A stretch of 64,000 nt of DNA from Pseudobacteriovorax antillogorgiicola (GCA_945865565.1 CAMBEK010000002.1:7901-71900), one strand, 5' to 3'; shown: positions 32,314 to 39,218, counted from the first letter of the stretch. Program-made: numbers and translations. The notes: a model not told the origin generated them from the letters alone.

Positions 32314-32381
32314 AACAACTTCTATTGATATTTTATAATTTTAATATAAATTACCTGAACTTTATGAACTCAGGGGGTTCC

Positions 32382-33701
32382 ATGCCAGTTCTTTTGTCTG
32401 GGCCATCCGCAAGGGCTGTCTGCCTGTCAGTTGGGTTTTCTTTCTTCCTGGCCTCTTGTGGTCGGTCAGATGACGGGTCAGGCAATGGGTCAGACTTAAA
32501 GCACCAGTTTGGCAGGACATCCGTGGCGCGCACGAATCCCCCAATTGCATGCCGCGACGGCAACACCCACAAGAATATCATCACGTACATCAAAAGCCTC
32601 GTCCGGTATTTGACCAAGGCAAACCCAAAGACCTTTAAAGGCGACCTGGATGGCAGCAAGATCTGCGTCATGATCGAAGACGACGATCGAATTGGTGCGT
32701 CGATGGAACCGAACTCGGGTCAGATGCGGATTAATACGGGCCTCTTCTTGAAAAAAAACGGCTTTGATTCTGATGCTGCCATCGCCACGGTGATCGCCCA
32801 CGAACTTGCGCATTTCACCATGGATCATGCCCATGCCCGGCCAACGGCACTGGATCTTCCGTCCGACTACGACGACGCGGCTTACAAGAAAAAATTGGCT
32901 GAATACAAGGCCATTGAAACAAAGGCCTCCGTCATGATTGGTGAGGCTTTTGATCGCGTGGCAAAGCAATATGGAGAAGGCCTTGTCATTTCAATGACGC
33001 CGGTATTTGACGAAATACGCGCACTCAAGGGAGTGGATTCGAGGCAGCAGCGAGATATCGAATGGACGGTCACTCTATTCGATGAATTCAAAGCAGACGT
33101 CGATTCCCTGCGCAAGTCCGGCGATGAAAAAGAATATTCGAGAAGGATGTCGGGGTACTTGTTAAGGCACGTGGAGCAGGCCCAGACCTACCGGCCAAAG
33201 ATTTCTCCGGTGCTTCGTGATGCGGCTGAGCCATGGGCGACCATGTTGACTGCCCTTGAATTAAAAAACCGCCTCGTTGCGGCGGCTAAGAAATACGAGC
33301 TGAGCAAAGAGGATCTTGTTCCCGAGTTGAAAAGGCTTCGGGCTCCGCACTTCCAGTGGGATGAAGAGCAGGCGGATGAAGTCGGTTTTGAGTTATTCAT
33401 TCGCGGCGGATTTGAACCCCGGGTCTATCCCGAAGTTTTTAATCAAGTAGCACAAAATCTCGAGGGTGCCGCAGACTGTGCGAAGGAAGTTAATCCGAAT
33501 TTGATGCCGCCACGGATTCATCCTGACCGGGAACCCCGCGGAAATCATCCGGACGCGTGCTGGCGTTATTGGAACTTGCGTTTCAATGAGCCGAAAATTC
33601 ATGATGCCGAATATACGCGGATCATGCCGAGCGTAACATTGATGGACTTGCCGCAACTTTCAGGTCAGCGTGAGGCAATCGAGCTGGAAGTTTCGCGTTA
33701 A
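32382..33701 (+). CDS. M48-family zinc metallopeptidase lipoprotein
   Basis: Lipobox FLASC, HELAH and EEQADEVG. Confidence 0.85.
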   Translation: MPVLLSGPSARAVCLSVGFSFFLASCGRSDDGSGNGSDLKHQFGRTSVARTNPPIACRDGNTHKNIITYIKSLVRYLTKANPKTFKGDLDGSKICVMIEDDDRIGASMEPNSGQMRINTGLFLKKNGFDSDAAIATVIAHELAHFTMDHAHARPTALDLPSDYDDAAYKKKLAEYKAIETKASVMIGEAFDRVAKQYGEGLVISMTPVFDEIRALKGVDSRQQRDIEWTVTLFDEFKADVDSLRKSGDEKEYSRRMSGYLLRHVEQAQTYRPKISPVLRDAAEPWATMLTALELKNRLVAAAKKYELSKEDLVPELKRLRAPHFQWDEEQADEVGFELFIRGGFEPRVYPEVFNQVAQNLEGAADCAKEVNPNLMPPRIHPDREPRGNHPDACWRYWNLRFNEPKIHDAEYTRIMPSVTLMDLPQLSGQREAIELEVSR

Positions 33702-33735: not shown

Positions 33736-34275
33736 TTAGTCAGGACAAGGCTCGTGCTGTGCATTTTTTACCGCCGCGCCTTGCTCATAAACAAGTTTTC
33801 CGCCCAGGTGGCCTGTCCAAGTCAGACACGCGATGCCTGCGATAAAACCAAGAGACGCAATGGTTCGAATTGGGTTCAGTGAGGACTTAAATCGTCCAAT
33901 CATTGAAATCAATTCACCACCCGCCGCGGTGGCAAGTCCGCTGGAAAAAATTACCATGGCCCAGTCAGCCCATTCTTCGTGATCTTTTGTGATGGTCGGA
34001 TCACAGATGATTTGATTGACGGTGTCCTCTGCCAGCTCACCGGTTTTCAGTGCGACGAGACCAGCAATCAAACCCAGTCCCATCAAAAGGCAAGATCCCC
34101 GACGCATGGATTTTGCGAAAGCGTCCCGGTGGAAGCCGTCTGCAACAATTGCCAGAAACCAAATCCCAGTTGCGGTCATCAACAGGGCCACGGGGAAATG
34201 AACGACAAGCGGGTGGAAGAGTTCCACCCGCGCAGGAATCAAGGATTTCACGGCGTCCAAGATTCCGTTTAGCAT
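33736..34275 (-). CDS. DUF2231-like membrane protein
   Basis: HPLVVHFPVALL and TGHLGGKLVYEQG motifs. Confidence 0.8.
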   Translation of the reverse strand: MLNGILDAVKSLIPARVELFHPLVVHFPVALLMTATGIWFLAIVADGFHRDAFAKSMRRGSCLLMGLGLIAGLVALKTGELAEDTVNQIICDPTITKDHEEWADWAMVIFSSGLATAAGGELISMIGRFKSSLNPIRTIASLGFIAGIACLTWTGHLGGKLVYEQGAAVKNAQHEPCPD

Positions 34276-34276
34276 A

Positions 34277-34636
34277 TCAGCGAATCTCAACGGCAATTGG
34301 TGTCAAACGACGGCCATGCTTTTCCGCTGAAACCTTCACGTTCGTGCCTTCTTTTAAAGCACTGAAGTCAGCCGGCGCTCCGCCCGATGTCACGGTCGTG
34401 GCGTCCGTGAAGTAGAACTCGTGCTTTTTGCCAGCAGCGTCTTTGACATAGATTTCTTTTTTCTTGGTGACAACCTTCACGACACTGCCTTCGATCTCCA
34501 CGATCGCAGCAGATTTTTTGATGGTCGTCGTCATTTCAGCAGCTGCCGCTGGCTTGGCTTCATTTGAAGCCGGCTGAGCAAAAGCTCCGGAACTCAAACC
34601 CGCAACGAACACCGATGTCATAATCAATTTACGCAT
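34277..34636 (-). CDS. Small periplasmic beta-barrel (OB-fold-like) protein
   Basis: Signal peptide ending AFA; IEGSV...FTDATTV...LKEGTNVKV pattern. Confidence 0.65.
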   Translation of the reverse strand: MRKLIMTSVFVAGLSSGAFAQPASNEAKPAAAAEMTTTIKKSAAIVEIEGSVVKVVTKKKEIYVKDAAGKKHEFYFTDATTVTSGGAPADFSALKEGTNVKVSAEKHGRRLTPIAVEIR

Positions 34637-35262: not shown

Positions 35263-35904
35263 TTAGGGTGCTGGTGGAGGCATGAAAAAAGGTGGAATGA
35301 TTCTGAGTCCGGCATCCTTGTCTAAGGCTAACAGGGCAGCCCTGTCGTCGCCCGCCAAGGTTAATTTGTCCACCTGGTTTTTAAAGTTGGCCTCTTCTTG
35401 CACTTGCTCCGTGATGAAAAAGAGCAAGAATGTTGCTGCATCCCGAGAATTCATGGCTGTGGCCAGATCGTGAAGTTTATTGATTCGCTCTGTTTGGATT
35501 TCTTCCAGGGCCAAGGATTTGGATGCGGCATCCAGCGGCGTGGTGAAAGTGATCGTTGGCACGTCAATCCCGTCAATGGCTGGTGTCTCGTCCTTGTCTG
35601 TCAGGAAAAACATCATCATCCGGGCATGGTTTAGTTCCTCAACGTACTGTGCCGTGTACCATGAACCAAATCCGTTGAGGTTGATTGCGTAGAAATTACT
35701 GGCGAGACTCAGATATTCTTGGGCTCCGTTGAGTTCGTCCTTAATTTGTTGATTGATGGCGGTCGTTACGTCCGGCGGGAGCTTGCGCAACATGGCCGTG
35801 TCGGTTGCCCCGTATCCTGCGGTTGAAAAAGTCAGAGCTGAAGCAGCCGCCAAGCTCAGCGCGGGTATGGCGATCACTGTCTTGATCCAATGGTAAACCC
35901 TCAT
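35263..35904 (-). CDS. Non-heme ferritin (FtnA-like) with N-terminal signal-peptide-like extension
   Basis: DELN...Y, EELNHA, LEE and TEQVQEE ferroxidase residues; AGGAG RBS 6 nt before ATG 35904. Confidence 0.88.
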   Translation of the reverse strand: MRVYHWIKTVIAIPALSLAAASALTFSTAGYGATDTAMLRKLPPDVTTAINQQIKDELNGAQEYLSLASNFYAINLNGFGSWYTAQYVEELNHARMMMFFLTDKDETPAIDGIDVPTITFTTPLDAASKSLALEEIQTERINKLHDLATAMNSRDAATFLLFFITEQVQEEANFKNQVDKLTLAGDDRAALLALDKDAGLRIIPPFFMPPPAP

Positions 35905-36186
35905 TTGATTCTCCTTTTGTGCTGGATCCCGAACCCAGCTGATTTGCTTCCTTGCCAGAAGAAACGTGATGCAACTTTCGGGCTGTAGAAAATTATCTCG
36001 TTCACGCCTCAATTCGCCATCCGTCAAATGACGGATAGTGAGTCTCTAATTAAAAATTCGGATCTCAAATTTTCCCCTGTTTTATTGGTTATTTATCAAT
36101 TGCTTATTTTTCATCTAAAGATCTCAATTCGGTAACCCGTTAACTCAAGGATGTTTTTTAAAATGTAATATGAGTAGCGGGGCTTT

Positions 36187-37236
36187 ATGCAAACTGATGC
36201 CGATCGGACATGTGTCCAAGTCCTTTCCTTTTGGGCGTCTGGTTTTGGCGTTGTGCTAATGCTGTTTGGTGCGTCTGCATGTTCTGGCAACGAAGAGACC
36301 CGGTCGCCTTCGGCCCTTGGCTCCGCAGTGACTGGCCATATCGAGCACTCCAGCGGTCAGGGAAAAAGTTTTTCTGTTTCTGCGACTGATGCCCCATGCC
36401 CCGGGGCGCAATCCGGCAGTCCAGCCTGCAGCACCGCCAGCGATTACGGCATGAGTGGTTCGGGTTCGAGCGCTAGCAGCGGGACTTCCAGCTCCAGCAG
36501 TAGCGGCGGGACTTCCAGCTCTAGCAGTAGCGGTGGGAGTGTGGTGAACACGCCATCGGTAGTTAATCTACAGCCAAGTGGAGCGCCAACCTGTGTGACG
36601 CCTAGTATTTGCGAGGAAGTTCTTGATGAGACCTGTCGTGTTCCTTATACAGCGAACTATTCTTGCCAAAATTTCGCTTATAATTTTTATAATCGCTGTA
36701 AGTGTGCCGGCGCGAGCGTTGTTCGCATTGACATTCAATGTCAGGGTGGTGCTCATGCGATAAACGGTGTTTATATGCCGCCGAAGCCACCAGATACGGT
36801 CGCAAAATTATGTGCGGTCGAACCTCAGGCTCCCTATGGGCCAGGTAAAAAACTTCAAGTGAAGCAGTGCGGTAATGTAAAGGAATTTTATACTTTCAAA
36901 GGGAAGAAATTTTACCGTTGGGTCACTAAATGCAAATTGGTGGATGGCCCCAATTGGGAAGTGCCGCCAAATCCCGATTGCAATTTTACCTATGAAAGGC
37001 TCTGCCGGAACATGGGGATGAAGCCAATACCCACCCCTGGCATTGGTGGCCTGACAATAATGCCCGATAACCCGGAACCAACTTTGATTCCCCAATGGTG
37101 CAGTGATACGAGAGTGCCTTTCACCCTTGCGGGTTGCATGACTTGTTGTGCCTCGATGTGGCCGCGTAGCACCCTTCTGGGAGATGAATGGAGAGACGCG
37201 TGTTCTGCGGCGTGTCGCAGTCGCGCTAATCCCTAG
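36187..37236 (+). CDS. Cys-rich secreted/lipoprotein hypothetical protein with Ser/Gly linker
   Basis: GASAC lipobox-like motif, SSGTSSSSSSGGTSSSSSSGG linker and many paired Cys. Confidence 0.6.
   Translation: MQTDADRTCVQVLSFWASGFGVVLMLFGASACSGNEETRSPSALGSAVTGHIEHSSGQGKSFSVSATDAPCPGAQSGSPACSTASDYGMSGSGSSASSGTSSSSSSGGTSSSSSSGGSVVNTPSVVNLQPSGAPTCVTPSICEEVLDETCRVPYTANYSCQNFAYNFYNRCKCAGASVVRIDIQCQGGAHAINGVYMPPKPPDTVAKLCAVEPQAPYGPGKKLQVKQCGNVKEFYTFKGKKFYRWVTKCKLVDGPNWEVPPNPDCNFTYERLCRNMGMKPIPTPGIGGLTIMPDNPEPTLIPQWCSDTRVPFTLAGCMTCCASMWPRSTLLGDEWRDACSAACRSRANP
36478..36540 (+). repeat. Coding tandem repeat (27-nt unit, GGTSSSSSS)
   Basis: GGGACTTCCAGCTCCAGCAGTAGC followed by GGGACTTCCAGCTCTAGCAGTAGC. 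Confidence 0.8.
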
Positions 37237-37397: not shown

Positions 37398-39218
37398 TCA
37401 GGCCCGGTTGTCTGGGCGCTTGGGTTTGAAGTCGCGCTGGGGACGGTCTGCATAACTGCGCGGGGCTTGTGGTCCGCTGCTGCGGGCGTCGTCGCGGTTG
37501 CCGCCGCGGTATCCGCCGCCGTTACTTCCGCCGCGGTATCCACCGCCACTGCTACTGCCGCCGTTGCTTCCGCCACGGTATCCGCCGCCGCTGCTGCCGC
37601 TGTTGCTTCCGCCACGGTATCCACCGCCGCTGCTGCCGCCGTTGCTTCCGCCGCGGTATCCGCCGCCGCTGCTGCCGCCGTTACTTCCACCGCGGTATCC
37701 ACCGCCGTCGCGGCTATCCCCGGGGCGCCGGCCTTGGCCGTAGCTTGGACGCTGGTTGCCAAAGGCTCCGCCATTTCGTTTGCGATCGATCAGACGCTTA
37801 AGGCGTTCATCGTCGAAGCCGATTCTTTGTGGTCCGCGTGCCTTGCGGCTGGCCTGCAGCAAACCAATCAAGCGGCATGCAATCTGTGACACATCCATCG
37901 TGGTTTCGAGTTGCGCCAGAAGTTCAAGGGCGTCGCTCGTGGATTCCTGGCTGTTGATGGATTCCATCAGCAGCTGGTCCAATTTCTTTTGGACGGCATG
38001 AACCCGCGGAACTTCGCGTGCCTGGAAGTTTGCTTTTACGGCGTCTTGAATCCGCTTCAGCTTGAAGTATTCGGAAGGGGTGACCAGGGTCATGGCCTTG
38101 CCCTTTTGTCCTGCCCGTCCTGTGCGGCCGATCCGGTGGATGTAGGCCTCGCGGTGAAACGGCATGTGGTAGTTGAAAACGTGAGTCACACCAACCACGC
38201 CAAGGCCGCGGGCAGCGACGTCGGTTGCAATCATGAAGCGCGTCTCGCCGGCACGAAAGCGGCGGATGATTTCCTGGCGCATGCTCTGGTCCATATCGCC
38301 ATGGAGTGCCTTGACGTTGTAGTTGCATGCCGCCAGGGCAGTCTGCAATTCGTCGACTTCAATTTTCGTGCGGCAGAAAACGATCGCGCGCTCTGGTTCT
38401 TCGGTATCAATCAACCGAATGAGGGCATCGCGACGCTCGGATTCTTCGACCACGTAAAACGACTGTTCGATGTCTTTGGGGATGCGTTCTTCTGTGGTGA
38501 TGTCGATGTATTCAGGATCCCGCAAAATATCATTGGCCAGCTTCCGGATAAGCGGCGGCATGGTGGCCGAGAACATCAAAGTCTGACGTTCTGCCGGCAT
38601 CATCGAGAATATTTTTTGGATGTCTTCAAGAAATCCCGTGTCGAGCATTTCGTCGGCTTCGTCGAGGACGACAATGCTGGGCTCAAACTTTTTCAAACGG
38701 CCAGATTCAAGAAGGTCGATCAGACGGCCTGGAGTTGCAACGACGATGGGGCATCCCTGGTTGATCAGCTCGACCTGACGCATGGATGACTGGCCACCGT
38801 AAACAGCAACGCTGCTCATACCAGCATTGCGACCTAATTTTGAAAGTTCGTCGCTGACCTGCAGGGCGAGTTCCCGGGTTGGTGCCATGACCAGGATTTT
38901 TACGCCGGATGATTTAGATGGCTTGAAACCACTGAGCAGCAAACGGCTCATGGCTGGCAATCCAAAGGCTGCGGTTTTGCCTGTTCCGGTCCGGGCCTGG
39001 GCGATAAGATCACGTCCCGCCATGGCGAGCGGAATTGCCAGACTCTGGATTGGACTGGGGGTCACAAAACCAGCGTCGCGGACGCCCCTTAGAATTTCCG
39101 GCGGAAGGCCGAATTGTTCAAATGTGTCGCTGCTGGTTTGATTGATTGGTTCACTGAGGGCCTCAGTGACCGTGTCATTAACCGTTTCGATGATGATGTC
39201 GTTGGTCTCGTTGCTCAT
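37398..39218 (-). CDS. DEAD-box RNA helicase, DeaD/CsdA-like, with Gly-rich RGG repeat tail
   Basis: [29 protein letters not shown]; tail with GGYRGGSNGGSSG repeats. Confidence 0.92.
   Translation of the reverse strand: MSNETNDIIIETVNDTVTEALSEPINQTSSDTFEQFGLPPEILRGVRDAGFVTPSPIQSLAIPLAMAGRDLIAQARTGTGKTAAFGLPAMSRLLLSGFKPSKSSGVKILVMAPTRELALQVSDELSKLGRNAGMSSVAVYGGQSSMRQVELINQGCPIVVATPGRLIDLLESGRLKKFEPSIVVLDEADEMLDTGFLEDIQKIFSMMPAERQTLMFSATMPPLIRKLANDILRDPEYIDITTEERIPKDIEQSFYVVEESERRDALIRLIDTEEPERAIVFCRTKIEVDELQTALAACNYNVKALHGDMDQSMRQEIIRRFRAGETRFMIATDVAARGLGVVGVTHVFNYHMPFHREAYIHRIGRTGRAGQKGKAMTLVTPSEYFKLKRIQDAVKANFQAREVPRVHAVQKKLDQLLMESINSQESTSDALELLAQLETTMDVSQIACRLIGLLQASRKARGPQRIGFDDERLKRLIDRKRNGGAFGNQRPSYGQGRRPGDSRDGGGYRGGSNGGSSGGGYRGGSNGGSSGGGYRGGSNSGSSGGGYRGGSNGGSSSGGGYRGGSNGGGYRGGNRDDARSSGPQAPRSYADRPQRDFKPKRPDNRA
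37498..37712 (-). repeat. Coding tandem repeat, about 39-nt unit (GGYRGGSN(G/S)GSSG)
   Basis: Six GGYRGG cores in the translated helicase tail. Confidence 0.9.

Follow-up and report, generated by a model that had tools for sequence, protein, structure and literature searches.

Bacterial iron storage, whether by Ftn, Bfr or Dps proteins, is by textbook account a cytoplasmic process. Ferritin cages outside the cytosol are familiar from eukaryotes, whose secreted and organellar ferritins are of the H/L type and are routed via the endoplasmic reticulum or into plastids. Four-helix di-iron bundles outside the free cytoplasm are also represented by ferritin-like domain proteins exported through Sec or twin-arginine translocation (Tat), of the Ferritin_2 or DUF4439 type, and by encapsulated ferritins. 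For bacteria, the only precedent that we found in the literature searched for an exported cage of the ferritin superfamily is Dps2 (DR_B0092) of Deinococcus radiodurans, which carries a predicted signal peptide, has been localised outside the cytoplasm by experiment, and is proposed to sequester iron and to counter reactive oxygen species (ROS) there (PMC6300522). Its gene adjoins a divergent pair encoding a two-component sensor and regulator (PMC6300522). Not one of 8.4 million full texts, a collection outside which the subscription literature lies, contains the phrase 'periplasmic ferritin', and full-text searches returned no description of a bacterial Ftn-type maxi-ferritin with a signal peptide, only Dps2 and eukaryotic secreted ferritins, those of invertebrates among them. 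Here we describe a gene for such a protein in a 64,000-nucleotide stretch of DNA from Pseudobacteriovorax antillogorgiicola (GCA_945865565.1 CAMBEK010000002.1:7901-71900), the whole of which is referred to below as the window. The gene encodes a ferritin precursor with an N-terminal leader, and its product is probably exported through Sec to form an iron-oxidising and iron-storing cage, most likely in the periplasm.

An Ftn-type ferritin with intact ferroxidase ligands

The program translation of the open reading frame (ORF) on the minus strand, at 35263-35904, begins MRVYHWIKTVIAIPALSLAAASALTFSTAGYGATDTAMLRKL and agrees exactly with the protein quoted in a first-pass annotation made from the DNA alone. 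The same 213-aa product is called for 27 near-identical public sequences, and public annotation of the proteins in its branch reads simply 'ferritin'. The Pfam family PF00210 matches residues 49-183 (E 8.9e-26, 91 bits against a cut-off of 24.5) and is covered from profile position 3 to 141 of 142, a whole-domain match above the curated threshold. The NCBIfam equivalog model for FtnA, NF007638 'non-heme ferritin', scores 57.2 bits, below its cut-off of 178. Because the first match is strong and the second score far below its cut-off, the protein is by these profiles a ferritin and not an FtnA orthologue. Its closest solved relatives by sequence are structures of the A. fulgidus ferritin, 1s3q and 3kx9 (E 4e-26), followed by Ftn proteins of Pyrococcus, Thermotoga, Helicobacter, Campylobacter and E. 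coli. The protein does not group with Bfr or Dps: no NCBIfam model of either kind matched it, and the best 60 PDB sequence matches are Ftn-type with the sole exception of Mycobacterium tuberculosis BfrB, which its depositors label a ferritin as well.

An AlphaFold2 (AF2) model calculated from a 44-sequence alignment has a predicted local distance difference test score (pLDDT) of 97-98 from residue 44 to about residue 200. Its helices (44-73, 77-103, 123-150, 154-184 and 188-198) make up a four-helix bundle (A-D), in which a long loop joins B to C, and a short helix E. Foldseek superposes the monomer model on 3kx9 and 1s3q with a TM-score of 0.97 and a root-mean-square deviation (rmsd) of 0.9 Å. 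Residues 1-35 are unstructured in the model (pLDDT <50). Within the alignment E57, Y64, E89, E90, H93, E134, E166, Q167, E170 and E171 show no variation, and when an offset of 40 is applied we take these to include the E. coli FtnA (EcFtnA) ligands E17, Y24, E49/E50, H53, E94, E126/Q127 and E130. The four-helix bundle with intact ferroxidase ligands reported in the first-pass annotation is thus borne out by the PF00210 match, the modelled fold and the invariance of the ligands. In the site-C set E89, E166 and E170 are kept, and the equivalent of E. coli E129 is Gln169 in the core of the branch and Glu in its outer members. Beyond helix E the branch has a tail of the pattern R-x-(I/V/A)-P-x-hydrophobic-hydrophobic-x-P-P/G-x-x-P; for most aligned canonical ferritins the match to the branch profile ends near residue 201-205.

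Translation starts at the leader

A Shine-Dalgarno (SD) sequence, AAGGAG or AGGAG, precedes the leader ATG (ATG1) by 6-8 nt in five loci, namely the window, L002, L003, L004 and L015. In the window it is AAGGAG, 6 nt upstream, in agreement with the ribosome-binding site that the first-pass annotation placed there. Comparison of the same five loci revealed nothing SD-like ahead of codon 38, which encodes the internal methionine considered as a start. This codon is ATG in the window and in L002 (96% identical) alone; L003 has CTG there and L004 has CTC, the more remote branch members have Phe, Val or Ile at the position, and the stretch of L015 from the leader ATG to helix A contains no ATG, GTG or TTG. 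A start at the internal Met (AMLRKL), which the first-pass annotation had named as the circumstance that would undo its own reading, is ruled out by these codons together with the positions of the SD sequences.

The leader also changes as a translated segment would. Between the window and L003 its 33 codons have accumulated 17 nonsynonymous and 8 synonymous changes and neither an indel nor a stop, as against 24 nonsynonymous and 74 synonymous changes over the 180 codons of the mature part. On this comparison the leader is a fast-evolving coding segment, its frame always open and its register constant. Signal peptides usually evolve in such a fast, in-frame manner.

The leader has a signal-peptide design kept through a deep branch

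The N-terminus has the basic, hydrophobic and small-residue order that was recognised in the first-pass annotation. Its n-region is basic (R2 and K8; net charge +1 to +4 across the branch members examined), the hydrophobic core VIAIPALSLAAASALTF spans 17 residues with a best 10-residue Kyte-Doolittle (KD) value of 2.4, and small residues follow at GYG↓ATD or YGA↓TDT, where the arrow marks the predicted cut. Leaders throughout the branch combine 1-4 basic residues, 12-21 uncharged and mainly hydrophobic residues and a small-x-small site. Cleavage-like sites in relatives are ANA↓NTR, ASA↓KSA, ARA↓NTR, VMA↓EST, AFA↓ESE, ALA↓EST, AQA↓STI, AQA↓TTV and SFA↓RIP, and the AxA site of these relatives lies 3-4 residues ahead of the conserved mature start L(V/L)RKLP (LVRKLP). 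Two other kinds of export signal were considered and rejected: the window leader contains no RR pair for a Tat signal (S/T-R-R-x-F-L-K) and no lipobox Cys for a lipoprotein signal. One distant member, P0016, has LRRLGF.

When 1.84 billion cluster representatives were searched with a profile, 10 relatives scored 165 bits or more, nine of them with an N-terminal extension bearing a hydrophobic stretch; the tenth, P0005, has a divergent N-terminus and is probably miscalled. These relatives outrank the bulk of the canonical ferritins of 160-175 aa, whose start corresponds to residue 2-5. In a maximum-likelihood tree built from the mature domain only (161 sequences), the window protein falls within a branch of 22 rows, representatives at 50% clustering, with a Shimodaira-Hasegawa-like approximate likelihood ratio test (SH-aLRT) value of 99. 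A signal-like leader is present in 21 of the 22, the open upstream frame being kept at 35-95% identity, and the remaining member, P0019 (MILFSLPAFA↓TIP...), is apparently truncated at its N-terminus. As controls we took the in-frame upstream stretches of 17 canonical ferritins. Sixteen are without such a leader, and the seventeenth (L074) was set aside, its match falling inside an 800-codon open frame. Since the pattern recurs in 21/22 branch members and in 0/16 canonical loci, it is on these counts more than chance. Conservation of the leader in homologues had been suggested in the first-pass annotation as a check on export, and the basic/hydrophobic/AxA design is indeed maintained in these members despite their differences in sequence.

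Among named genomes, those with a member of the branch are Oligoflexales metagenome-assembled genomes (MAGs) and two 'Proteobacteria' MAGs (L002-L004, L015, L019 and L033). It occurs in 8 of 131 sampled Bdellovibrionota genomes, all eight of them Oligoflexales, from three families. Long open frames at other PF00210 matches in relatives (G004, G007, G013 and others) gave no match to the branch profile (E <= 1e-5); they therefore lie outside the branch and were taken, by assumption, as Dps/Bfr-type.

About five more leader-bearing ferritins sit outside the branch, including P0046 (…SAPVDA↓QPR), P0102 (…LMAFA↓SSN) and P0134 (…SASRA↓DTS), as well as P0036, which has a lipobox-like LIAC. The state of the leader changes at least 2 times on the tree, the most parsimonious number being 6, and because separate ferritin lineages bear classical leaders, export of Ftn proteins seems to have arisen several times. 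The gene for P0102, a ferritin unrelated to the branch with the leader MKKKLTLLISLFLPLMAFA↓SS, lies directly behind a cluster resembling a type II secretion system (T2SS), with E/F ATPase-platform and pseudopilin genes (L161/L162:1-4591; 2.9-Mb genome). Here ferritin export or secretion may have arisen independently.

Genome and iron context

The window derives from a freshwater Oligoflexales MAG with rhodopsins (genome 2.5 Mb, 90% complete). Exactly one PF00210 gene is present in this genome (G000), as in its congeners G001 and G005, and no Dps, bacterioferritin or second ferritin gene was detected in these three genomes, each roughly 90% complete. In many other Oligoflexales one to three different PF00210 genes, or canonical Ftn, are present. 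Fur is present in the window genome, and a search for FeoB yielded generic GTPase matches only, so that FeoB is probably absent. An iron permease domain of the FTR1/EfeU type is encoded at G000:C1:322783-323400. Known relatives of this domain (EfeUOB, FtrABCD) take up periplasmic iron, and a permease of this type fits periplasmic Fe(II) as a physiological species here. The domain sits in an 828-codon open frame, far above the usual length, which suggests a fusion protein. The first-pass idea that the cage might serve a predator in handling prey iron found no support in this small-genome, freshwater, rhodopsin-bearing MAG, in which no feature of the locus suggests predation.

A probable exported cage and its alternatives

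Translation of the leader, the maintenance of its design and a normal fold with its ligands together favour the exported ferritin proposed in the first-pass annotation, with export and cleavage as predicted steps, and we regard a Sec-exported and probably periplasmic cage that oxidises and stores iron as the probable function of this gene. The precursor, translated from ATG1 with its Sec-type signal peptide, would pass the inner membrane as an unfolded chain via Sec, and signal peptidase I would remove about 32-33 residues, around GYG↓ATD. The mature subunits of 180 aa, which should need no cofactor for folding, would then assemble into a periplasmic ferritin cage, presumably the usual 24-mer. 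There the di-iron ferroxidase centre would use O2 or H2O2 to turn periplasmic Fe(II) into a ferric mineral deposit, so that the cage could act as an extracytoplasmic iron buffer and store and as a shield against Fenton chemistry.

Several points weigh against this reading. The leader was judged by classical hand rules. The window site is weaker than those of the relatives, with Tyr at -3 if the cut is YGA↓T, or otherwise Gly-Tyr-Gly↓A, and the uncharged run of 26 residues (T9-T34) is long, such that an uncleaved anchor is possible. If the protein is exported, its being the sole ferritin-superfamily gene would leave the cytoplasm without a ferritin-type store, which is unusual but not impossible, the MAGs being about 90% complete. 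A 12-nm cage would have to be accommodated inside the periplasm, which is plausible. Finally, the link between the neighbouring regulator and its putative operator, described below, is positional only.

The first-pass annotation had also allowed for secretion; on that reading the ferritin cage would leave the periplasm for the medium or for outer-membrane vesicles and would serve there in scavenging or protection. A sorting or binding role is conceivable for the Pro-rich C-terminal tail peculiar to the branch, and the unrelated, leader-bearing P0102 follows a T2SS-like E/F/pseudopilin cluster; however, the tail matches no recognised C-terminal sorting signal, no secretion-system genes were found near the ferritin locus of the window, and an assembled 12-nm 24-mer is, to our knowledge, larger than the known secretin channels. 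Passage beyond the periplasm is therefore doubtful. The long uncharged run and the weaker -3/-1 pattern would alternatively suit an uncleaved signal-anchor that tethers the subunits to the inner membrane on its periplasmic side. This is unlikely, as most relatives have short h-regions (12-19 residues) and textbook AxA sites, and the hydrophobic core of the window leader itself contains Pro, Ser and Ala in the manner of a signal peptide. Furthermore, ferritin N-termini face outward around the whole cage, and 24 anchors on a normal cage cannot reach one membrane.

An exported cage need not store iron: it might be a periplasmic ferroxidase that scavenges peroxide or oxygen, or hold another metal. 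The replacement of the third-site residue Ec E129 by Gln169 in the core branch can be read in this way, and the Dps2 precedent is treated mainly as ROS protection (PMC6300522). Against this, the A/B-site ligands, the equivalents of Tyr24 and Gln127, the E-helix and the cage-forming fold are all kept, and storage and detoxification share the same chemistry, with nothing to tell them apart; a role other than storage is improbable. Least credible of all is an ordinary cytoplasmic ferritin made from Met38 behind an accidental, untranslated open frame, for although it would have a canonical N-terminus just 3 residues longer than that of EcFtnA and is the only ferritin of its genome, the codon and SD comparisons above speak against it, as does an upstream frame that is open, with start, SD and signal-like composition, in 21/22 members.

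A linked membrane-tethered regulator and a putative operator

The exported-cage reading gains a possible means of control from the gene that follows the ferritin (Table 1). It encodes a regulator with two N-terminal transmembrane (TM) helices, a coiled coil and a C-terminal helix-turn-helix (HTH) of the NarL/GerE type, the last assigned from PDB profile matches with E about 1e-3 and a weak Pfam GerE match. D39, D43, G47, H52 and E56, in or between the TM helices, are invariant across proteins that are 31-84% identical. The Asp/Asp/His/Glu cluster is a plausible metal- or redox-sensing site for a periplasmic signal, and the regulator itself may represent an undescribed type of sensor for periplasmic metal or redox state. 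It adjoins an exported-type ferritin in genus g1, on the same strand, and in genus g25, divergently, where the ferritin is only 35-42% identical; no such regulator stands beside the branch members of g15, L033 or L137.

The region upstream of the ferritin gene contains a 7-2-7 inverted repeat whose halves can be written ATCCGTCA-TT-TGACGGAT (window 36019-36036). A 20-nt segment, TCCGTCATTTGACGGATGGC, is 100% identical in four otherwise diverged upstream regions (window, L003, L004 and L138), L002 carries the 7-2-7 palindrome too, and the g25 intergenic region keeps a related CATTTGTCCAATG. The exact 16-mer has a single copy in the genome, and its sole 1-mismatch copy is inside a coding region. 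A regulon defined by further copies of the operator was sought and not found genome-wide, a reversed-pattern control giving similar numbers. Inverted repeats of the 7-2-7 arrangement are used by NarL-family HTH dimers. The palindrome is thus likely an operator for a NarL/GerE-type dimer, and given this arrangement the operon's own regulator is the obvious candidate to bind the TCCGTCATTTGACGGA site. Expression of the ferritin would then probably be set by the membrane-tethered regulator, whose Asp/Asp/His/Glu cluster could respond to metal or redox conditions in the periplasm and whose HTH would bind the palindrome before the gene. A sigma-70 promoter scan of the ferritin upstream region gave nothing useful, and a repeat scan of the same region in the window detected no Fur-box-like repeat. 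A Fur-like repeat in L015 was dismissed, as it lies inside regulator coding sequence.

Neighbouring genes

Gene order in genus g1 is DEAD-box helicase, ferritin, 182-aa regulator, 119-aa secreted protein and DUF2231, with 65-96% protein identity. The gaps are 18 nt between ferritin and regulator and 59 nt after the regulator, followed by overlap or near-abutment, and such short or overlapping spacing suggests that the genes from ferritin to DUF2231 form an operon. The coordinates of these features are collected in Table 1.

Table 1 Features of the ferritin locus, with positions counted from the first letter of the window
Feature	Position	Strand	Details
Ferritin precursor gene	35263..35904	-	213 aa, Ftn-type with N-terminal leader; stop TAA 35263-35265; ATG 35902-35904
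Shine-Dalgarno AAGGAG	35911..35916	-	6 nt 5' of ATG1
Leader, predicted Sec / signal peptidase I signal, residues 1-32/33	35806..35904	-	n MRVYHWIK, h TVIAIPALSLAAASALTF, c STAGYG↓A
Mature ferritin domain	35305..35805	-	helices A-E residues 44-198; ligands E57, Y64, E90, H93, E134, Q167, E170
Hydrophobic Pro-rich C-terminal tail, R201-IIPPFFMPPPAP-213	35266..35304	-	kept through the branch
Putative operator, 7-2-7 inverted repeat TCCGTCA-TT-TGACGGA + TGGC	36016..36036	-	about 115-130 nt upstream of ATG1
Membrane-tethered one-component regulator, 182 aa	34696..35244	-	18 nt 3' of the ferritin stop
Secreted small beta-rich protein, 119 aa, leader MRKLIMTSVFVAGLSSGAFA↓Q	34277..34636	-	always precedes the DUF2231 gene
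DUF2231 four-helix membrane protein	33736..34296	-	start probably M8 at 34275

The 119-aa protein has no significant family or PDB match. In the DUF2231 protein H28, H33 and H106 are invariant, H163 is kept in close relatives, and C98/C184 are present; these His and Cys residues would lie on the periplasmic face. Its AF2 model has a pLDDT of 89, and Foldseek returned generic helical bundles only (E > 0.1), with no significant solved relative. The literature searched yielded nothing on this partner protein. A small beta-rich protein (about 118 aa, secreted or a lipoprotein) and DUF2231 also occur as a pair without ferritin, at L158:615-1546 and L159:4629-5498, and since they do, the pair is on this evidence a module of its own that has joined the ferritin in g1 alone.

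Three further genes lie close by. A large predicted lipoprotein peptidase, M48-like (HExxH), adjoins the ferritin cluster in the window (32325-33701, +) and in L004 (3549-4991); a comparable HExxH protein (L137:1541-2686) adjoins the distant branch member P0012, and the association may be loose. A divergent predicted lipoprotein of 349 aa (window 36187-37236, +), with a long Ser/Gly linker, a Cys-rich C-terminal domain and no Pfam match, is found in L003 and is missing from L004 and L138, which places it outside the ferritin module. The DEAD-box helicase (window 37398-39218, -), the conserved upstream neighbour of the ferritin in g1, carries at its C-terminus a long tail built of GGYRGGSNGGSSGG-type repeats; this low-complexity region of the RGG/YG kind differs in length among species.

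A wider and more tentative reading takes the four genes from ferritin to DUF2231 as a self-contained extracytoplasmic module for iron homeostasis, storage having been moved wholesale to the periplasm. The periplasmic cage would then be the cell's only iron store. The membrane sensor, with its Asp/Asp/His/Glu cluster and NarL-type HTH, would read periplasmic iron or redox state and drive the operon via the 7-2-7 operator. The small secreted beta-protein and DUF2231, with its periplasm-facing His cluster, might pass iron or electrons between cage and inner membrane, in a role corresponding to that of Bfd in release from bacterioferritin. While only a possibility, this would mean that iron storage has been relocated from cytoplasm to periplasm in this lineage.

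Discussion

Our analysis adds to the known ferritins a deep, conserved Ftn branch with predicted export leaders, which provides the sole ferritin of some genomes and has its own membrane-bound regulator and putative operator, with several independent look-alikes in other lineages. Taken together, the depth and conservation of the branch, the sole-ferritin genomes, the dedicated regulator and operator and the independent look-alikes suggest that periplasmic iron storage or detoxification is a recurrent and overlooked strategy. Bacteria with small genomes in sunlit, oxic waters, in which Fe(II) and H2O2 are produced photochemically, may be well served by such a strategy; that interception of these species in the envelope gives a selective advantage to a rhodopsin-bearing surface bacterium is speculation. 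The system may also be of practical use, as a naturally Sec-compatible 24-mer cage, presumably self-assembling, for periplasmic or surface display of ferritin nanoparticles, and as a defined candidate sensor-operator pair with which to probe for periplasmic iron sensing.

Among described proteins the nearest are the prokaryotic Ftn cages (A. fulgidus ferritin (AfFtn), 1s3q/3kx9; P. furiosus; T. maritima; E. coli FtnA, 1eum), which share with the window protein the Pfam family, the bundle with its E-helix and the di-iron ligands, AfFtn being 35-36% identical with an rmsd of 0.9 Å. Those proteins are cytoplasmic, whereas the window protein is predicted to be exported, and it differs from them in its 33-residue Sec-type leader, its 13-residue Pro-rich hydrophobic tail, the site-C Gln of the core branch and the linked membrane-tethered regulator. 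The exported ferritin-like domain proteins and encapsulated ferritins are not PF00210 cage formers, in contrast to the window protein, whose PF00210 match is full-length; it has no apparent encapsulin targeting motif, though no search for encapsulins was made. The secreted ferritins of insects, ticks and molluscs and the organelle-targeted ferritins of plants and diatoms likewise have a cleavable targeting peptide before the ferritin subunit, and the window ferritin has no evolutionary link to them beyond the shared family. Dps2 is a mini-ferritin, a 12-mer whose ferroxidase sites lie between subunits, and is restricted to two Deinococcus species and placed beside a two-component system, whereas the window protein is a maxi-ferritin of the Ftn type that belongs to its own deep branch in Oligoflexales and is accompanied by a one-component membrane regulator.

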